In this document: positions 379 to 13,402 of the stretch, in pieces
Numbering within the stretch: the stretch's first letter is position 1
How the letters are laid out: each line of letters opens with the position of its first letter
Source of the DNA: a virus
Taxonomy: Duplodnaviria > Heunggongvirae > Uroviricota > Caudoviricetes
Direction: 5' to 3' (one strand)
Length of the DNA stretch: 35,142 bases
Virus record (IMG/VR): IMGVR_UViG_2526164668_000014
The notes under the pieces: model-generated
Told to the model about the DNA's origin: nothing
Databases searched by the model: none
Seen by the model: only the letters and a program-made list of their open reading frames with translations
Made by a program: the position numbers and the translations under genes

Positions 379-609
379 GTTCACAGATAAAACACTCTCC
401 AGGAAACCCGGGGCGGTTCAGACCTCATTTCCCCTTAACGCCGGGGTAGCGGAACTGTTTGCTGAGAACACCGTGCGGTGTCTTGATGGAGGTAATTTAG
501 TTTTCTCATTATTTTTCGTCAAGGTTTTTTGATTAGAAAACTCAAGTGTTGGCGCAAGATAAAGCCAATACATTGAAATGTAAGGCTTTAAAATTTTGTG
601 AAGGGATGA

Positions 610-1017
610 TTATTGATGCTTGTTGCGTTTGCGAGCCTCTAATAGCTCGGTGAACAGGCGATTAAAATTCTCAACGCGGGCGCGGAGTTCGCTGAGTTGT
701 GCTTGTTGCTCTGATTTAGGAAGTGCGCGATACAAACGCAGCATCTCTAACTCATCTTCCGATAAGTCTAAGGCACTATCGAGTGAAACAGGGGGAGCTG
801 GTGTTTTGTCCTCGTCGCCAAACAGTATCCAAGTTGGTGAACATTGCAATACCTCGGCGAGGCGATGCAAATTTTGCCCGCGCGGGGCTGTATGGTCACT
901 TTCCCATAATGAAATTGATGAGCCAGATACGCCAGCAGCTTTGCTTAAACCGTTTTGACTTAAGCCTACCTGCTTACGTCTTTCTCTAATGCGTTGACCT
1001 AAAGTTTTCTCGTTCAT
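610..1017 (-). CDS. dicA: DicA-like HTH_XRE repressor (cI analogue)
   Basis: 135 aa from the internal Met (MNEKTLGQRIRERRK...); C-terminal LQCSPTWILFGDEDK...NFNRLFTELLEARKR matches remembered K-12 DicA; the upstream ATG at 1068 is an alternative start. Confidence 0.85.
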   Translation of the reverse strand: MNEKTLGQRIRERRKQVGLSQNGLSKAAGVSGSSISLWESDHTAPRGQNLHRLAEVLQCSPTWILFGDEDKTPAPPVSLDSALDLSEDELEMLRLYRALPKSEQQAQLSELRARVENFNRLFTELLEARKRNKHQ

Positions 1018-1094
1018 ATTTAGATATCTTAATAACCCTTGACTTGAGATTCCTTGAGTGATTAGCATTGAGAAAACTCAATATTGGAGGTGCG
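1018..1094. promoter_or_regulatory. Divergent dicA/dicC promoter-operator region
   Basis: 77-bp gap between divergent genes; TTGACT...TTAGCAT promoter-like elements; repeated TTGAG half-sites including palindrome TTGAGAAAACTCAA. Confidence 0.5.
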
Positions 1095-1322
1095 ATGTTT
1101 AAATCAGACGTAATTAATTTTTACGGTACGAAAGCCAAAGTAGCGAAAGCTGCTGGCGTTGACCCATCTGCTGTTTCTCAATGGCAAGAGCTGGTTCCTG
1201 AAGGTCGCGCGATGCGTCTACAGGAGGCATCTGGCGGCGAGCTTCTGTATGATCCCAAGGTTTATGACGAATATCGTAAGACGAAGCGGGCGGGGCGGTT
1301 GAACAATGAAAATCACTCCTGA
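1095..1322 (+). CDS. dicC: DicC-like Cro-type regulator
   Basis: ATG preceded by GGAGGTG; 75 aa; divergent from the repressor; C-terminus VPEGRAMRLQEASGGELLYDPKVYDEYRK. Confidence 0.7.
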   Translation: MFKSDVINFYGTKAKVAKAAGVDPSAVSQWQELVPEGRAMRLQEASGGELLYDPKVYDEYRKTKRAGRLNNENHS

Positions 1323-1827
1323 ACAGGCTCGTGAGGCTCTGGATGCCTGGATATGTCGACCAGGAATGACACAGGAGCAGGCGACGATATTAATCACTGA
1401 AGCATTCTGGGCTTTGAAAGAGCGCCCGAACATCGATGTTCAGCGTGTCACAGATGAAGGTGGCGCGGTTGATCAGCGAGCACTTGGCGTTAATCGAGTG
1501 AAGATATTCGAACGCTGGAAGGCTATCGACACCAGGGATAAGCGTGAAAAGTTCACGGCGCTAGTGCCTGCAATTATGGAGGCTATTCGGATTAATGATT
1601 TCAGGTTGTATCGTGAAATTAGTGACGGAAAAAGCATCACGTACATGATCGCCGGGTTAAACAAAGAATATGGCGATGTGGTGGAGTCCGGACTGCTTTT
1701 TGCTGATCCTGCCGTAGTGGATCGTGAAACTGACGAACTTATAGAAAAAGCAATTGCTTTCAAACTTGCGTATCGACAGCAATACCAACAAAAAGCTGGA
1801 TGGAATTATGAGCCTTCTTTTTGCTGA
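1306..1827 (+). CDS. YdaT/YdfX-like phage regulatory protein in the cII position
   Basis: 173-aa ORF overlapping the dicC stop (translational coupling); same position as ydfX in Qin and ydaT in Rac. Confidence 0.6.
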   Translation: MKITPEQAREALDAWICRPGMTQEQATILITEAFWALKERPNIDVQRVTDEGGAVDQRALGVNRVKIFERWKAIDTRDKREKFTALVPAIMEAIRINDFRLYREISDGKSITYMIAGLNKEYGDVVESGLLFADPAVVDRETDELIEKAIAFKLAYRQQYQQKAGWNYEPSFC

Positions 1828-2773
1828 ACGCCCACTGGTTATAAACACACAGCTTGCGATGAAGATTGGCTTAAATGAAGCCATTGTGTTGCAGCAGTTG
1901 CATTACTGGTTGAGAGATACCAATTCCGGCATGGAATGTGATGGTGTTCGCTGGATTTACAACACAACGGAACAATGGCTGGAACAGTTCCCATTCTGGT
2001 CAGAGTCAACGTTAAAGCGCGCGTTTGCAAGTCTGAAAACGCTGGGGCTTTTGCGTTGTGAAAAGCTCAATAAATCAAAGCGCGATATGACCAATTTCTA
2101 CACGATCAACTACGGGAGCGAGCTTTTAGATGGTGGCAAATTGAGCGAATCCATCGGTTTAAAATGCGCCGCTCCATCAGGTCAAAATGACACGATGGAA
2201 GAGGTCAAAATGAAACGCTCCATTGGTTCAAAACGACCCAATGTCATCGGGTCAAAATGGCCTGATGATCTTACAGAGAATACAACAGAGATTACTACAG
2301 AGAATAAAAACACTTTTCGTCCGGAAGCTTCGCAACCGGACCCGCAGACCGCTGAACAGGATTTTTTAACCCGGAACCCCGACGCGGTTGTGTTTAGTGC
2401 GAAAAAACGCCAGTGGGGTAGCAGGGAGGATTTGGCGTGTGCGCAGTGGATTTGGGGGCGGATCGTGAACCTTTACGAACAGGCTGCCAGCGACGATGGA
2501 GAGATCATGCGACCAAAAGAGCCTAACTGGACAGCCTGGGCCAATGACGTGCGCACAATGCGGATGCTGGATGGCAGAAGCCACAGACAAATTTGCGAAA
2601 TGTTTGGTCGGGTACAGCGAGATCAATTCTGGGTAAAAAACATCATGAGCCCGTCAAAACTCCGCGAAAAATGGGACGAACTGGTCATCCGCCTGGGACG
2701 TTCACCTGTAAAGCGTTGTGTGAATCATATTTCTGAACCGGATACAGAAATTCCGCCTGGTTTCAGGGGATAA
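1808..2773 (+). CDS. Phage replication initiation protein (O-like replisome organiser)
   Basis: Start MSLLFAERPLV overlaps the upstream gene; iteron array inside the gene as for lambda O/ori; N-terminal HTH-like region. Confidence 0.65.
   Translation: MSLLFAERPLVINTQLAMKIGLNEAIVLQQLHYWLRDTNSGMECDGVRWIYNTTEQWLEQFPFWSESTLKRAFASLKTLGLLRCEKLNKSKRDMTNFYTINYGSELLDGGKLSESIGLKCAAPSGQNDTMEEVKMKRSIGSKRPNVIGSKWPDDLTENTTEITTENKNTFRPEASQPDPQTAEQDFLTRNPDAVVFSAKKRQWGSREDLACAQWIWGRIVNLYEQAASDDGEIMRPKEPNWTAWANDVRTMRMLDGRSHRQICEMFGRVQRDQFWVKNIMSPSKLREKWDELVIRLGRSPVKRCVNHISEPDTEIPPGFRG
2156..2259. repeat. Iteron array, candidate origin of replication
   Basis: Five copies of GGT(C/T)(A/T)AAA(A/C)(T/C)G starting at 2156, 2180, 2203, 2225 and 2250 (22-25 bp spacing), followed by three ACAGAGA(A/T)TA repeats at 2270-2307. 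Confidence 0.55.
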
Positions 2774-2813
2774 GTGTTGATTTTAGGGTATAAAGTAATG
2801 TTCAGGAGGACTT

Positions 2814-3233
2814 GTGGCAAAAGTTTTTACACAAGAAGAGCGGGAAAAAATTAAAGGGCAGGTGGTGGAACTCGTACGCCAGAGTGGGCGCGAGACGTTA
2901 CGACAACTGGAAGCTAAAACTGGGGCAACAAGATATCTGATGAGCGTTCTGGCCAGAGAGCTGGTTGCCAGTGGCGATGTATACAGCTCTGGTTACGGGT
3001 TATTCCCGTCTGAACAGGCGCGTAAGGACTGGCAAAACGCCCGCAAAAAACTCTCGAGGGCAAAGGTGAAGAAACCTGCTGTGGTTGATCCGGACCTTAT
3101 CTGGTCATTACCTGACGGAGAAATACGTCGCTACGACAGTCGTCTAAACATAATCTGTCGCGAGTGCCGGAAGGCAAGGAGAAGCAGGCTATTGTTAACA
3201 TCAAGCTGTAATGTCCCCTTTGAACCATTCTAA
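2814..3233 (+). CDS. Hypothetical phage protein (GTG start); 3' end abuts the transposase insertion
   Basis: SD CAGGAGGA before GTG; 139 aa; stop lies 34 nt before the transposase ATG, so the C-terminus may be altered by the insertion. Confidence 0.5.
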   Translation: MAKVFTQEEREKIKGQVVELVRQSGRETLRQLEAKTGATRYLMSVLARELVASGDVYSSGYGLFPSEQARKDWQNARKKLSRAKVKKPAVVDPDLIWSLPDGEIRRYDSRLNIICRECRKARRSRLLLTSSCNVPFEPF

Positions 3234-4980
3234 AATGTCCCCAGACAATTCTCTGGGGGATTTTTCATGATCAAAGAGACTGTTACGATGAGTCATAAGG
3301 AACTCCACCGACTTCAGATTATTCAGGAGTCAATTAATCGACATATTACTCAGGAACAAGCTGCGGCACGCATTGGCATTTCTATTCGGCAGGTTAAACG
3401 TCTGGTGCAACGGTATAGAAATGAAGGGCCTTCTGGTCTGGTTTCCCACCGACGTGGAAAGCGTCCTAATAATTCCTTTTCTACTGAATTCAGAGCAACA
3501 GTAATTTCACTCCTCAAAGGCCGTTACGCTGATTTTGGACCTACGTTTGCGTGCGAAAAATTGCGCGAGATACACGGTTTATCTTTATCCGTTGAAACTC
3601 TCAGAAAGTGGATGATAGAAGAGGGGTTATGGCGTGAACGCCGTCGTAAAATTGCCCGTATATATCAACGCCGCATGCGACGACCATCTTACGGTGAACT
3701 GATCCAGATTGATGGCTCACCTCATGACTGGTTTGAAAATCGAGGCCCCAGATGTACACTGATCGTTTTCATTGATGATGCCACCAGTGCGTTGATGGCG
3801 TTGCGTTTTGTGCCTGCTGAAACAACCCGGGCTTACATGGAAACCCTCCGGGGTTACCTTAATGATCATGGCGTACCGCTCGCTCTCTACTCTGATAGAC
3901 ACAGTATATTCAGGGTAAATAACCCAGAGCGGGAAGGTGAGCTGACCCAGTTCACTCGTGCGATAAAGACACTGGGCATCGAGCCAATCCATGCCAACAG
4001 CCCGCAGGCAAAAGGGCGGGTAGAGCGCGCCAATCAGACACTACAGGACAGGCTGGTCAAAGAAATGTGGCTTCAGAATATCAGTGATATTGAAACAGCA
4101 AATGCATGGTTGCCGACCTTTATTGAAGCCTATAACAACCGGTTCGCTACGTCGCCTCGTACTACTGATAATGCTCATCTTGATGTGCACCATTCTGAAG
4201 AGGAACTGGGTTATATCTTCAGCCTACAGGCGAAGCGCGTTCTGTCTAAAAATCTCACTTTCCAGTACAAAAGCAGTGCGTTTCAGGTACGCAGTGAGGG
4301 CCGGGGATATCGACTTAGGCATTCGGTTGTTACTGTATGTGAGAACTTTGACGGTGAAATTAACGTTCTGTATGACGGGAAAGCGCTGGGCTGGGAAAAG
4401 TATGTTGATGGCCCGGAGCCTATACCACTGGATGATGAAAAGAGTGTCCATGAACGAGTGGATAATGCCCGTATTGATTTACGCTCAAAATACTATGTTA
4501 AATCTAAAGCTGACCATCCCTGGCCTACGCGCCGAACGCAAAGTCATCAGCAAGTTAAGCCCCCGAAGTTACCTAAAAAGAAGCCTGATCCCGATAAAAT
4601 AGATTGAAACCAAGATCGATTCGGTTGAGTGCATATCCATTCATAGGGTAGATTCTTAAGTCGCGTTTCTGGTGTTCATTTTCGGGTGGTTTGTTACTTG
4701 TTTTACCGGGGATATGCCAGAAACGCGCTGAGTCAGTCTGGGCGGTGCGCGTAATGAGGCGTTATGGTAAATAGCCTATGCTAATGTCCGCTAAGAGCAA
4801 GAAGCGGAAGTTGGCAGTTTTGTGGACTGTCCCCACAAAAGTGACTACAGAAATAGTTGCAATTCATAATTGATCATGGGTTGTCAGTTAAACTCGTGGC
4901 GATTTAAATAGACTAATTGGGAGTGCGTCCATTACTTATATCTTGTAATGTTAACTATCAGAAATGATACAAAGATAATA
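3200..4980 (+). mobile_element. Insertion sequence carrying the DDE transposase (termini not resolved)
   Basis: Transposase flanked by about 370 bp of non-coding DNA before the flxA terminator; imperfect 20-bp palindrome CCCCAGACAATTCTCTGGGG at 3239-3258. Confidence 0.35.
3267..4607 (+). CDS. DDE (rve integrase-core) transposase of a single-ORF IS (IS481/ISNCY-like)
   Basis: 446 aa; N-terminal HTH; candidate D-D-E residues in IQIDGSPHDW, YSDRHSIF and GRVERANQTLQDRL. Confidence 0.8.
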   Translation: MIKETVTMSHKELHRLQIIQESINRHITQEQAAARIGISIRQVKRLVQRYRNEGPSGLVSHRRGKRPNNSFSTEFRATVISLLKGRYADFGPTFACEKLREIHGLSLSVETLRKWMIEEGLWRERRRKIARIYQRRMRRPSYGELIQIDGSPHDWFENRGPRCTLIVFIDDATSALMALRFVPAETTRAYMETLRGYLNDHGVPLALYSDRHSIFRVNNPEREGELTQFTRAIKTLGIEPIHANSPQAKGRVERANQTLQDRLVKEMWLQNISDIETANAWLPTFIEAYNNRFATSPRTTDNAHLDVHHSEEELGYIFSLQAKRVLSKNLTFQYKSSAFQVRSEGRGYRLRHSVVTVCENFDGEINVLYDGKALGWEKYVDGPEPIPLDDEKSVHERVDNARIDLRSKYYVKSKADHPWPTRRTQSHQQVKPPKLPKKKPDPDKID

Positions 4981-5897: not shown

Positions 5898-5908
5898 AGG
5901 TGTAAGAC

Positions 5909-6148
5909 ATGGGTAGCATTAACCTGCGTATTGACGATGAACTTAAAGCGCGTTCTTACGCCGCGCTTGAAAAAATGGGTGTAACTCCTTCTGAAGCGCT
6001 TCGTCTCATGCTCGAGTATATCGCTGACAATGAACGCTTGCCGTTCAAACAGACACTCCTGAGTGATGAAGATGCTGAACTTGTGGAGATAGTGAAAGAA
6101 CGGCTTCGTAATCCTAAGCCAGTACGTGTGACGCTGGATGAACTCTGA
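5909..6148 (+). CDS. relB: RelB antitoxin
   Basis: 79 aa MGSINLRIDDELKARSYA...; stop overlaps the relE start. Confidence 0.95.
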   Translation: MGSINLRIDDELKARSYAALEKMGVTPSEALRLMLEYIADNERLPFKQTLLSDEDAELVEIVKERLRNPKPVRVTLDEL

Positions 6149-6435
6149 TGGCGTATTTTCTGGATTTTGACGAGCGGGCACTAAAGGAATGGCGAAAGCT
6201 GGGCTCGACGGTACGTGAACAGTTGAAAAAGAAGCTGGTTGAAGTACTTGAGTCACCCCGGATTGAAGCAAACAAGCTCCGTGGTATGCCTGATTGTTAC
6301 AAGATTAAGCTCCGGTCTTCAGGCTATCGCCTTGTATACCAGGTTATAGACGAGAAAGTTGTCGTTTTCGTGATTTCTGTTGGGAAAAGAGAACGCTCGG
6401 AAGTATATAGCGAGGCGGTCAAACGCATTCTCTGA
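6148..6435 (+). CDS. relE: RelE mRNA-interferase toxin
   Basis: 95 aa MAYFLDFDERALKEWRKLGSTVREQLKKKL... Confidence 0.95.
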   Translation: MAYFLDFDERALKEWRKLGSTVREQLKKKLVEVLESPRIEANKLRGMPDCYKIKLRSSGYRLVYQVIDEKVVVFVISVGKRERSEVYSEAVKRIL

Positions 6436-6506
6436 ACCAAAGCATGACATCTCTGTTTCGCACCGAAGGTGACACTTCTGCTTTGCGTTGACAGGAGAAG
6501 CAGGCT

Positions 6507-6662
6507 ATGAAGCAGCAAAAGGCGATGTTAATCGCCCTGATCGTCATCTGTTTAACCGTCATAGTGACGGCACTGGTAACGAGGAAAGACCTCTGCGAGG
6601 TACGAATCCGAACCGGCCAGACGGAGGTCGCTGTCTTCACAGCTTACGAACCTGAGGAGTAA
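6507..6662 (+). CDS. hokD: HokD (RelF) Hok-family membrane toxin
   Basis: Hand-translated 51-aa ORF MKQQKAMLIALIVICLTVIVTALVTRKDLCEVRIRTGQTEVAVFTAYEPEE, below the ORF-track cutoff; Hok-family hydrophobic helix. Confidence 0.85.
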   Translation: MKQQKAMLIALIVICLTVIVTALVTRKDLCEVRIRTGQTEVAVFTAYEPEE

Positions 6663-6732
6663 GAGACCCGGCGGGGGAGAAATCCCTCGCCACCTCTGAT
6701 GTGGCAGGCATCCTCAACGCACCCGCACTTAA

Positions 6733-7196: not shown

Positions 7197-7475
7197 ATGG
7201 CACGCAACGCAAAATATTACAATTCTGATAATTCGCCCGTTCTTGCCTGCACGCACGGGCGGTATTCTCACGCATTCAAGTCTGAATGGTTCCAGCACCC
7301 TCCATGCACTGCAGAACAGGCCGAATGGCTGATTCATTCTTACCGCAGGCGCGGGTTCGAGGTTAAGAAAGCTCTCAGTCTCGACTATCGGCACTGGATA
7401 ATCTCTGTCAGGCTGCCTTATTCCGAACGCCCACCACGTGCGTCCCGCACTTTCCAGCAACGGATCTGGAGGTAA
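7197..7475 (+). CDS. Hypothetical protein, coupled to ydfU
   Basis: 92-aa ORF with GGAG SD; its stop is 2 nt before the ydfU GTG start. Confidence 0.45.
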   Translation: MARNAKYYNSDNSPVLACTHGRYSHAFKSEWFQHPPCTAEQAEWLIHSYRRRGFEVKKALSLDYRHWIISVRLPYSERPPRASRTFQQRIWR

Positions 7476-9916: not shown

Positions 9917-10215
9917 AAAATTCCTTAATACTGATAACTTGGCGCACTATACACACGTTCCTGAAGAAAGCTATAGTTTTTTGATGGGGTTGAAGATGGC
10001 TGGATGTCTAAAATAAACATTGCTTCATATGTTCAACTATGCGTTAATGATTGCGTCGGTTTGAAGAACAGACGATATACGAAGTAGTTTACTAAAGCAG
10101 TTCTCATTTCAGGTGTTATTCACTTATTCCTTCTTTGAGTCTCTCCAATTAAGTACGAAGTCGTTTCTGTTATGCAAACCATTTATGCCGAAAGGCTCAA
10201 GTTAAGGAATGTAGA

Positions 10216-10431
10216 ATGTCAAATAAAATGACTGGTTTAGTAAAATGGTTTAACGCTGATAAAGGTTTCGGCTTTATTTCTCCTGTTGATGGTAGTAAAG
10301 ATGTGTTTGTGCATTTTTCTGCGATTCAGAATGATAATTATCGAACCTTATTTGAAGGTCAAAAGGTTACCTTCTCTATAGAGAGTGGTGCTAAAGGTCC
10401 TGCAGCAGCAAATGTCATCATTACTGATTAA
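10216..10431 (+). CDS. cspB: Cold-shock protein CspB
   Basis: 71 aa [37 protein letters not shown]...; long upstream leader typical of cold-shock genes. Confidence 0.9.
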
Positions 10432-10713
10432 AATTCATCGCTCGTCTGTATACGATAACGAAGAAGGCTGATGCCTGAGTAGAGATACGGACAGAGTAGT
10501 GAATATTGGATCTCTTTAATAAAAAGTAAGGAGGTCCAATACATGAAACAATGGCTAGCATATTTGGCAAAATCTTAATCAGGAAAAGTATGCTAACCAT
10601 TGTGGTGAAGTGCAGGTTTGCTGCATGAATAGTTTTACAGCAGAAGCTAACTGCTGGCATGGCAAAACAAAGTGCGTAAGTGGATGACTCCCACAAAAAG
10701 CACCACAATCTCA

Positions 10714-10794: not shown

Positions 10795-10965
10795 TCAGGC
10801 TACAGCTTTAAGATTTGTCTGGAATACTTTGTTGCAATGAGGGCAGATCAAAAGGGCACCTTTTTGTACTCTTGAAAAACTGTGTTCTGACTCTTGGGTG
10901 CAGTTTGGGCAGGAACATTTAACGAGATAATTACGGCGTGATTTTGAGTTTTTACGTTCTGACAT
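10795..10965 (-). CDS. YdfK/YnaE-like small zinc-ribbon protein
   Basis: MSERKNSKSRRNYLVKCSCPNCTQ...CPHCNKVF with two CxxC pairs; SD AGGAAA before this ATG; an upstream ATG at 11016 would give 73 aa. Confidence 0.65.
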   Translation of the reverse strand: MSERKNSKSRRNYLVKCSCPNCTQESEHSFSRVQKGALLICPHCNKVFQTNLKAVA

Positions 10966-11184
10966 AGGCTTTTCCTGTATAAATGGCCGTATACAGTACA
11001 CTAAATATGAAAACATTTCTCGTATTATTATTTTATATATGACTTTCTTTCAAAATAATTACCCACATTTTTAATGTGTATGTTTTTTTAGCGCCGTTGA
11101 GAACAACGTGTGCTGTCAAAACTACCCCGTAGACTCCGATCTTTTCAAACATATTGCACCATCCGTGTACATCGGGGTGAGGAT

Positions 11185-11400
11185 ATGAAATCAATGGATA
11201 AGTTAACAACAGGTGTTGCCTATGGCACATCGGCGGGTAATGCTGGTTTCTGGGCATTGCAGTTACTCGATAAAGTAACTCCGTCACAGTGGGCTGCAAT
11301 CGGTGTGCTGGGTAGCCTGGTTTTTGGCCTGCTGACGTATCTGACAAATCTTTATTTCAAGATTAAAGAAGACAGGCGTAAGGCTGCGAGAGGAGAGTAA
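11185..11400 (+). CDS. essQ: Class II holin (phage-21 S-type pinholin)
   Basis: 71 aa [28 protein letters not shown]...; Met1-Lys-Ser-Met4 dual-start motif; two transmembrane segments. Confidence 0.9.
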
Positions 11401-11404
11401 TCCA

Positions 11405-11712
11405 ATGACTCAAGACTATGAACTGGTTGTGAAAGGAGTCCGTAATTTTGAGAATAAAGTTACGGTAACTGTAGCCTTACAGGACAAAGAACGCTTTGAC
11501 GGTGAAATTTTTGACCTGGATGTCGCCATGGACCGTGTTGAAGGAGCTGCGCTGGAGTTTTATGAGGCAGCAGCCAGAAGGAGCGTCCGGCAAGTCTTCC
11601 TGGAAGTAGCAGAAAAATTGTCAGAAAAAGTTGAGTCTTATCTGCAGCATCAGTACTCCTTTAAGATTGAAAATCCTGCCAATAAGCACGAGCGTCCTCA
11701 TCATAAATATCT

Positions 11713-12740: not shown

Positions 12741-13101
12741 GGTAATATTAAATCGGAACATTTACATCGCGGAATGTAAAATTTGAATAAAAAGGACTCT
12801 TCCATGAGCCAAAATTCCTGAAATCTTAAGGGTAAGATAAAAGGTCTTAATCAGAATGACACGTTTTATTAATAAATAAAGCTATTCTTTCATTGCTGTG
12901 TTTTTCTTTACAAAAGTAATCCTTGCTATGGGTGGTTAATCATGCGTTAATGGTGTTCTGGTTTGTTACAAATTTATCTGAAGCAGTCATTGTTATAATT
13001 TTATTATTTGTACCTCTTGAGATTTCCTTGTTGGTTTTTCTCTCTGATATTTTTTTCGGACCATTCTGCCCAAGGGCTAATTTCTTCAAAAGGTAATAAT
13101 T

Positions 13102-13314
13102 ATGTCTAACAAAATGACTGGTTTAGTGAAATGGTTTAACCCTGAAAAAGGTTTTGGTTTCATCACGCCGAAAGATGGCAGCAAAGATGTGTTTGTCCAT
13201 TTCTCAGCAATTCAGAGCAACGATTTCAAAACATTAACTGAGAATCAGGAAGTTGAATTTGGTATTGAGAACGGACCTAAAGGTCCTGCCGCTGTTCATG
13301 TAGTGGCGCTTTGA
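13102..13314 (+). CDS. cspI: Cold-shock protein CspI
   Basis: 70 aa [37 protein letters not shown]... Confidence 0.9.
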
Positions 13315-13402
13315 GGTAGACAATATTACAAACCATATTCACTTTAGATGCCCGTGTTGTCATGGTTCCCAGTATAGAACATCATCTTTTGATGTTTCTG
13401 AC

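Follow-up and report, generated by a model that had tools for sequence, protein, structure and literature searches.

The question raised by this locus is whether the tandem repeats within the gene for an O-like replication initiator in a lambdoid prophage form an origin of replication. The stretch of DNA that was analysed, referred to here as the window (35,142 bp), is a lambdoid prophage from an E. coli chromosome and belongs to the Qin/CP-933O type; its bases 421 to 25000 were 99 to 100% identical to prophages adjoining rspAB in several complete genomes. An earlier note on this DNA had suggested a lambdoid origin, embedded in the O gene. Sequence comparison supports that suggestion, because the position of the repeats in the gene, their period, and their order, with iterons followed by an A/T-rich segment, match those of ori-lambda. 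We consider it probable that the repeats are the vegetative replication origin of a Qin/CP-933O-type lambdoid prophage and that this origin lies in the linker-coding part of the initiator gene (Table 1). The placement of an origin within an initiator gene is well known; the type of initiator found here is uncharacterised.

Table 1. Features of the initiator gene, its repeats, and the neighbouring genes (window coordinates)
Feature	Position	Strand	Sequence	Basis
Repressor gene	610-1068	minus		
Cro-like gene	1068-1322			
YdaT/CII-like gene	1306-1827			
O-like replication initiator gene, 321 aa, probable origin within	1808-2773	+		phrog_391, RefSeq CDS
N-terminal winged-helix domain coding region, ~aa 1-108, presumed iteron reader	1808-2130	+		AlphaFold2, Foldseek, residue 67 covariation
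Degenerate upstream iteron (copy 0)	~2130-2152	+	GGTGGCAAATTG	Repeat family; arm symmetry 3/10
Iteron 1	2152-2174	+	CATCGGTTTA-AAA-TGCGCCGCTC	Arm symmetry 5/10
Iteron 2	2175-2197	+	CATCAGGTCA-AAA-TGACACGATG	8/10 palindrome
Iteron 3	2198-2220	+	GAAGAGGTCA-AAA-TGAAACGCTC	5/10; good left half-site only
Iteron 4	2221-2243	+	CATTGGTTCA-AAA-CGACCCAATG	8/10 palindrome
Iteron 5	2245-2267	+	CATCGGGTCA-AAA-TGGCCTGATG	8/10 palindrome
Region homologous to C-terminal half of lambda O, aa 147-294	2246-2689	+		BLASTP
Candidate DNA-unwinding element, three 12-nt units	2271-2310	+	ACAGAGA(A/T)TAC	TRF, stability, conservation
C-terminal 21-residue tail like E. coli DnaT C-terminus, aa 301-321	2708-2770	+	VKRCVNHISEPDTEIPPGFRG	phmmer, NCBIfam
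DUF977/Ren-like ('LygF') gene	2814-3233			
ISEsa1 transposase	3267-4607			

The claim that the array lies inside an O-like initiator open reading frame was borne out. The product matched the phrog_391 profile ('replication initiation O-like') with an E value of 1e-92 over nearly its full length (residues 17 to 321 against profile positions 11 to 298 of 298), and the array occupies nucleotides 345 to 460 of the 966-nucleotide gene. The same coordinates are annotated in identical genomes as a RefSeq coding sequence, WP_000054504.1, which is named 'hypothetical protein', and phage PhiR42_1 has a protein, listed as 'DNA replication protein O', with 98% identity to the initiator. Pfam assigned no domain to the initiator, and its sole NCBIfam match was the DnaT-like tail discussed below.

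The two halves of the protein have different affinities. An AlphaFold2 model of residues 1 to 112, built with 32 homologues (pLDDT 80), is a winged helix with H-H-b-b-H-H-b-b topology. The best Foldseek matches of this model in the PDB, and thus its nearest solved folds, were the N-terminal domains of RepA_N initiators of staphylococcal plasmids (pSK41 and pTZ2162; 4pql, 4pt7, and 5kbj, one of them a Rep-DNA complex), matches that were weak (E ~1e-3, TM 0.48 to 0.55). The Pfam RepA_N model did not match the N-domain. The lambda O family model PF04492 (Phage_rep_O) did not match the initiator even at E values up to 10, whereas lambda O scores 5.7e-36; by sequence the N-domain is outside the lambda O family. 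Residues 147 to 294, however, aligned by BLASTP with residues 135 to 270 of lambda O (34% identity over 148 aa, E 3e-28), in an alignment whose start coincides exactly with the last iteron and the A-rich block and which extends through the C-terminal domain. As modelled, the initiator combines an N-domain that is RepA_N-like, rather than of the lambda type, with a C-domain like that of lambda O.

The five motif copies described in the earlier note are real and were found on the plus strand at 2156, 2180, 2203, 2225, and 2250. When both strands of the whole window were scanned for GGT(T)YAAAAYG, there were five matches, all on the plus strand and all between 2156 and 2259, within about 105 bp, compared with 0.34 on average, and never more than 3, in mononucleotide shuffles. 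The repeat unit had been taken to be 10 to 11 bp long, which proved to be incorrect. The repeats are contiguous iterons of 23 bp, each internally dyad-symmetric, in which two 10-bp arms flank a central AAA and the best form is CATCnGGTCA-AAA-TGnCCnGATG. Complementarity of 8/10 between arms was reached at just 0.07% of window positions. The regular period that had been reported holds, with the adjustment that the spacing of 22 to 25 bp given for the motif becomes 23, 23, 23, and 24 bp when measured from the core T[CT]AAAA[CT]G. A CCAT(C/T) element had been said to precede every copy; copies 1, 2, and 4 have it exactly, copy 5 has TCATC in its place, and copy 3 lacks it. This element is the outer left arm of the iteron palindrome. 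The degenerate copy 0 is better preserved in the homologues mEp460_4F5 and Kp4884-3 (GAGGTCAAAGTG).

The cores begin at 2159, 2182, 2205, 2228, and 2252, which correspond to codon phases 0, 2, 1, 0, and 0. Cores that fall in three codon phases indicate a repeat at the level of the DNA rather than the echo of a peptide repeat. No open reading frame of at least 50 aa was found on the opposite strand at 2149 to 2315, and Rfam at its gathering score gave no match in the segment holding the iterons and the ACAGAGA repeats. The iteron region of PhiR42_1 is identical to that of the window except at position 2160 in iteron 1, where the window has T (GGTTTAAAATG) and PhiR42_1 has the consensus C (GGTTCAAAATG), which gives a TCA half-site. 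The change away from the consensus is a Ser to Leu substitution in the initiator protein. This departure, and the poor arm symmetry of iterons 1 and 3, count against the reading as an origin. Among homologues of the initiator in the databases, many are cut short or change reading frame within the segment that codes for the iterons. Such arrays may be liable to indels or to errors of assembly, or a large number of prophage copies may have been inactivated at that point.

Three ACAGAGA(A/T)TA repeats directly follow the iterons, as the earlier note had stated, at 2273, 2285, and 2297 (span 2273 to 2306), and TRF reported a period of 12 with 2.8 copies. One other ACAGAGAWTA match is present in the window, on the minus strand at 7399, with 0.10 expected per window. 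The block is A-rich, and purine-rich on the plus strand, with 71% A+T and 50% A at 2268 to 2315. Among the 40-mers of the gene, that at 2271 to 2310 has the lowest stability (-44.3 kcal/mol versus a mean of -55.1 and an sd of 3.5, thus about 3 sd from the mean), and within 600 to 3300 a single 40-mer, that at 996 to 1035 at the repressor start codon, is less stable. The block is read as a candidate unwinding element.

The nucleotide sequence of the block is conserved beyond that of its surroundings. Positions 2268 to 2310 were 98% and 88% identical in two homologues in which the DNA encoding the N-domain was 72% identical. ACAGAGA was found on the plus strand at gene nucleotides 390 to 560 in 57 of 76 loci that were no more than 90% identical to the window, at a density of 9.2 per kb versus 0.06 elsewhere and 0.02 on the minus strand. 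The Thr-Glu dipeptide was encoded as ACAGAG in 119 of 127 instances in the block versus 11 of 60 elsewhere in the same open reading frames, which ranged from 33 to 66% GC (Fisher p 8.5e-26, uncorrected for kinship or horizontal transfer). This codon test was conditioned on the Thr-Glu dipeptide and replaced an earlier version, anchored on ACAGAGA, that was partly circular. The choice of ACAGAG codons is fixed in the block, and therefore the nucleotide sequence is under selection. In the window the units are in frame and encode TENTTEITTEN, and some constraint at the protein level on the acidic, Thr-rich linker is possible.

Arrays of the same kind are found with homologues of the N-domain. With tblastn, 155 phage records were found to contain the N-domain (from Klebsiella, Pseudomonas, Erwinia, Hafnia, Staphylococcus, Listeria, Bacillus, Vibrio, Bacteroides, and others), and arrays at the same gene position and with the same period accompanied the homologues of 76 further species and of about 15 phages. 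In every one of the loci that were read directly, 20 in number, the array was just 3' of the N-domain. An unbiased search placed the densest 9-mer cluster at gene nucleotides ~315 to 450, with 21- to 24-bp spacing, in 14 of 20 phage loci, which included lambda, a Stx1 phage, and phages of Staphylococcus, Bacillus, Hafnia, Burkholderia, and Stenotrophomonas. Among 80 species-level genomic loci of 3.3 kb each, the densest cluster was inside the 240-nt region of interest in 43, when about 6 would be expected by length. Protein-database homologues of the N-domain were mostly short or truncated and were used for the structure alignment rather than for gene-level comparison, and the 80 loci from a scan of viral contigs with the N-domain were all 99 to 100% identical and thus of no use for divergence.

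The check on homologues that the earlier note had called for was made in these loci. The ~23-bp nucleotide periodicity was kept while the encoded amino acids differed, the opposite of amino acids conserved with the periodicity lost. Staphylococcus phage fPfSau02, the N-domain of which is ~50% identical (45% by BLASTP, 52% by tblastn), has the identical core GGTCAAAATG three times. The iteron arms differ among homologues (GGTCA, GGGCA, GGACA, and GTATCA). In ~90 homologous loci, residue 67, in the first turn of the predicted helix 66-79, covaried with the base 5' of CA(W3). Of the distinct helix sequences, all 14 with Asp were paired with G, 22 of the 31 with Ser were paired with T, and 3 of the 5 with Lys were paired with A, counts that are uncorrected for kinship and horizontal transfer. 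Of the computational evidence available, this covariation speaks most strongly for the N-domain as the reader of the iterons, and it makes residue 67 a candidate specificity-determining residue.

Three other explanations for the repeats need to be weighed. One is that the periodicity of the DNA arises incidentally from a repeated linker peptide and has no function as DNA. Copies 1, 4, and 5 are in one frame and encode IG(L/S)K, and the in-frame 12-nt units encode TE(N/I)T repeats, as such an explanation would have it. However, 23 is not a multiple of 3, the cores are in three codon phases, the nucleotide motif is kept in homologues that have different peptides, the choice of ACAGAG for Thr-Glu is fixed in this block only, and a base of the iterons covaries with a residue of the DNA-binding domain. 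The protein-repeat explanation was rejected on the evidence from codon phase and codon choice, and we regard it as extremely improbable. Another explanation sees in the ACAGAGA block, perhaps together with the rest of the segment, chiefly a recombination junction at which N- and C-terminal modules are swapped, its conservation resulting from frequent exchange. Phage matches to the gene do split at the block, with query positions 58 to 544 matching one set of phages and 497 to 875 another. The block CTTACAGAGAATACAACAGAGATTAC (window 2267 to 2306) is common to the O genes of Stx1 and Stx2 phages (97.5% over 40 nt; Stx locus 1201 to 1240), the iterons of which are of the GGGAAAC type and, like both protein domains, otherwise unrelated. 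In a Stx1 phage O gene it is the only part shared with the window gene and the sole significant protein alignment. Kp4884-3 likewise keeps the N-domain, iterons, and block with a different C-terminal domain, Phg_2220_C. As judged by these alignments, the block marks a mosaic junction. Nevertheless, the motif persists, against host codon bias, in elements of Staphylococcus, Bacillus, and Pseudomonas, between which and E. coli phages exchange is implausible; the units of Bacillus phage TP21-L are 10 to 11 nt apart, with one of them read in another frame. A junction also leaves the iterons unaccounted for, and it does not compete with an origin, with which it is compatible. That recombination is the main explanation is therefore very unlikely.

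It is also conceivable that the array is a true initiator-binding site that serves regulation (autorepression, copy control, or handcuffing) or the exclusion of related phages, with opening and replisome loading elsewhere in the prophage. Plasmid iteron arrays act in copy control too, the SPP1 initiator binds two distant regions (as cited in PMC5499656), and plasmid-borne copies of ori-lambda inhibit lambdoid phages (PMC3349717, PMC4488673). Furthermore, the residue 67 covariation bears on the specificity of binding and not on origin firing. Against this, an array with the gene's least stable segment directly after it, itself conserved at the DNA level, is the canonical layout of an origin, and neither the 800 bp upstream nor the 500 bp downstream of the gene contained another repeat cluster comparable to it. 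We consider a purely regulatory or exclusion role unlikely.

The reading of the repeats as an origin can be compared with known systems, of which ori-lambda is the closest in layout. A lambdoid origin consists of iterons and an AT-rich tract in the middle of O, and O binds the bent iterons and single-stranded AT-rich DNA (PMC7466680). The annotated lambda iterons are at gene nucleotides 348 to 432, spaced 20, 24, and 23 bp (ATCCCTCAAAACGAGGGA, then ACACAAAAGACACTATTACAAAAGAAAAAAGAAAAGA), and their centre, TCAAAACG, is common to lambda and the window. Both have tandem, dyad-symmetric iterons with a central TCAAAAYG and a ~23-bp period, followed by an A-rich, purine-skewed, unstable tract. In both, the array is inside the initiator gene between the parts coding for the DNA-binding domain and the C-terminal domain, the latter being homologous. 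The six-iteron origins of the Stx phages 933W and P27 have the same in-gene layout. There are also differences. The lambda iteron arms are ATCCCTC rather than CATCnGGTCA, lambda has four iterons whereas the window has five or six, and the A/T tract of the window, unlike that of lambda, consists of three exact 12-nt ACAGAGAWTAC units. Unlike in lambda, the N-domain is not PF04492, no P gene is downstream, and the protein has a DnaT-like tail.

RepA_N replicons, the initiators of which supplied the nearest solved folds, also have the origin inside the rep gene. Their iterons take the form of semi-palindromic direct repeats with a poly-A tract as their point of convergence (PMC7145576), and the window iterons show this same pattern of semi-palindromic repeats converging on an A-tract. 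Unlike the RepA_N replicons, the window element is a phage with a lambda-O-like C-domain, and the structural match is weak (TM ~0.5), with no match to the Pfam RepA_N model. The replisome organisers of Gram-positive phages (SPP1 G38P with oriL; 80alpha ORF20) have their own origin within the initiator gene, as proposed for the window, and a deletion of 80alpha ORF20 was not complemented in trans (PMC5499656). N-domain homologues in Staphylococcus, Listeria, and Bacillus phages (46 to 52% identity) are accompanied by the same kind of array, one of which has the identical core. These Gram-positive homologues have C-terminal domains of the DnaD/DnaB_2 type and adjoin phage helicase genes, unlike the window initiator.

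On the origin reading, a mechanism can be proposed. Winged-helix dimers of the N-domain would bind the five or six contiguous 23-bp semi-palindromic iterons, an interaction that the protein-DNA covariation supports, with each iteron offering two half-sites that converge on the central A-tract. By analogy with lambda, the 23-bp spacing (~2.2 helical turns) and the A-tracts may lead to an O-some-like wrapped nucleoprotein complex. The stress of wrapping would then open the adjacent least stable segment at 2271 to 2310, an opening that we infer, while its low stability and its conservation at the DNA level were computed. Transcription rightward from the cro promoter would pass through the origin, as in lambda. 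More speculatively, the lambda-O-like C-domain and the DnaT-like tail may recruit the host helicase machinery with no phage loader of the P/DnaC type.

The genes next to the initiator gene are consistent with the last step. No gene like lambda P, DnaC, or DnaB was found 3' of the initiator gene (2774 to 4607), where the DUF977/Ren-like gene comes next and then ISEsa1. PhiR42_1 and mEp460_4F5 have no annotated loader adjoining the initiator gene, and mEp460_ev081 has no P/DnaC-like loader 3' of it. Judged by this gene content, the replication module appears to rely on host loading functions. The tail VKRCVNHISEPDTEIPPGFRG matched residues 159 to 179 of DnaT by phmmer (PDB 2ru8, 9zbt; E 0.005 to 0.02) and the DnaT model of NCBIfam (E 0.003), and kindred tails (IPAGFRG, VPAGFRS, and VPAGFRN) close homologous initiators that have other C-terminal domains. 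The tail may be a mimic of a host primosome motif, and it is speculation that it recruits host primosome or helicase components. A 2026 preprimosome paper contains no statement on the role of the last 20 residues of DnaT. The tail offers a hint of how lambdoid phages that lack a loader might connect with the replication machinery of the host.

ACAGAGA units were found in initiator genes of phages and prophages of both Proteobacteria and Firmicutes with N- and C-terminal domains that are not homologous. It is possible, and we put this forward as a tentative and rather doubtful proposal, that ACAGAGA(N)TAC units at 10- to 12-nt spacing are a sequence-specific, portable origin element, beyond an A/T-rich melting tract. 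If so, a common factor would read the units, probably as single-stranded DNA, and candidates are the initiator oligomer, the replicative helicase or its loader, and primase. Among known elements, the 13-mers or DnaA-trios found in origins of bacteria and plasmids would then come closest, and together with the covariation of residue 67 and its base, the units would make predictable the 'recognition code' of a large class of phage origins that is uncharacterised. A full-text search of the open literature returned nothing relevant on the core GGTCAAAATG or on ACAGAGA with iteron.

The module is widespread. Megablast found it in 4,638 of 5,426 complete E. coli genomes, with at least 80% of the 2.3-kb module in 1,385, and thus the present analysis provides a base-level origin annotation for a module common in E. 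coli genomes in which the gene is listed in RefSeq as a hypothetical protein. The conservation of array position and period across phyla, the candidate specificity residue, and the conserved 12-mer could together allow origins to be predicted from sequence in many uncharacterised temperate phages. The gene and array are 98 to 99.7% identical in genomes deposited as phages (PhiR42_1 and mEp460_ev081, the latter 99.7% identical at the DNA level), which suggests that the module is still in use.

The copy in the window itself has lost part of the prophage. A C-terminal fragment of an IS3-family transposase (ORF 7 to 378) occupies 1 to 420, where related genomes carry ydfA, ydfB, dicB, exo, xis, and int, and likeness to related prophages begins at 421. 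The window copy is thus without the early-left arm and the integrase side, and as an IS-flanked prophage copy it may never replicate at all. RelBE and HokD toxin-antitoxin modules are located at ~5900 to 6700, by homology with a related prophage (its 10910 to 11663), between the replication and late-regulation regions as in the Qin prophage of K-12, and the open reading frame at 5909 to 6148 is RelB-like. Two Rfam cspA thermoregulator 5' leaders were found at 10055 to 10447 and 12957 to 13341 (158.8 and 114.2 bits), and by offset from an annotated near-identical prophage these cover the cspB and cspI loci.
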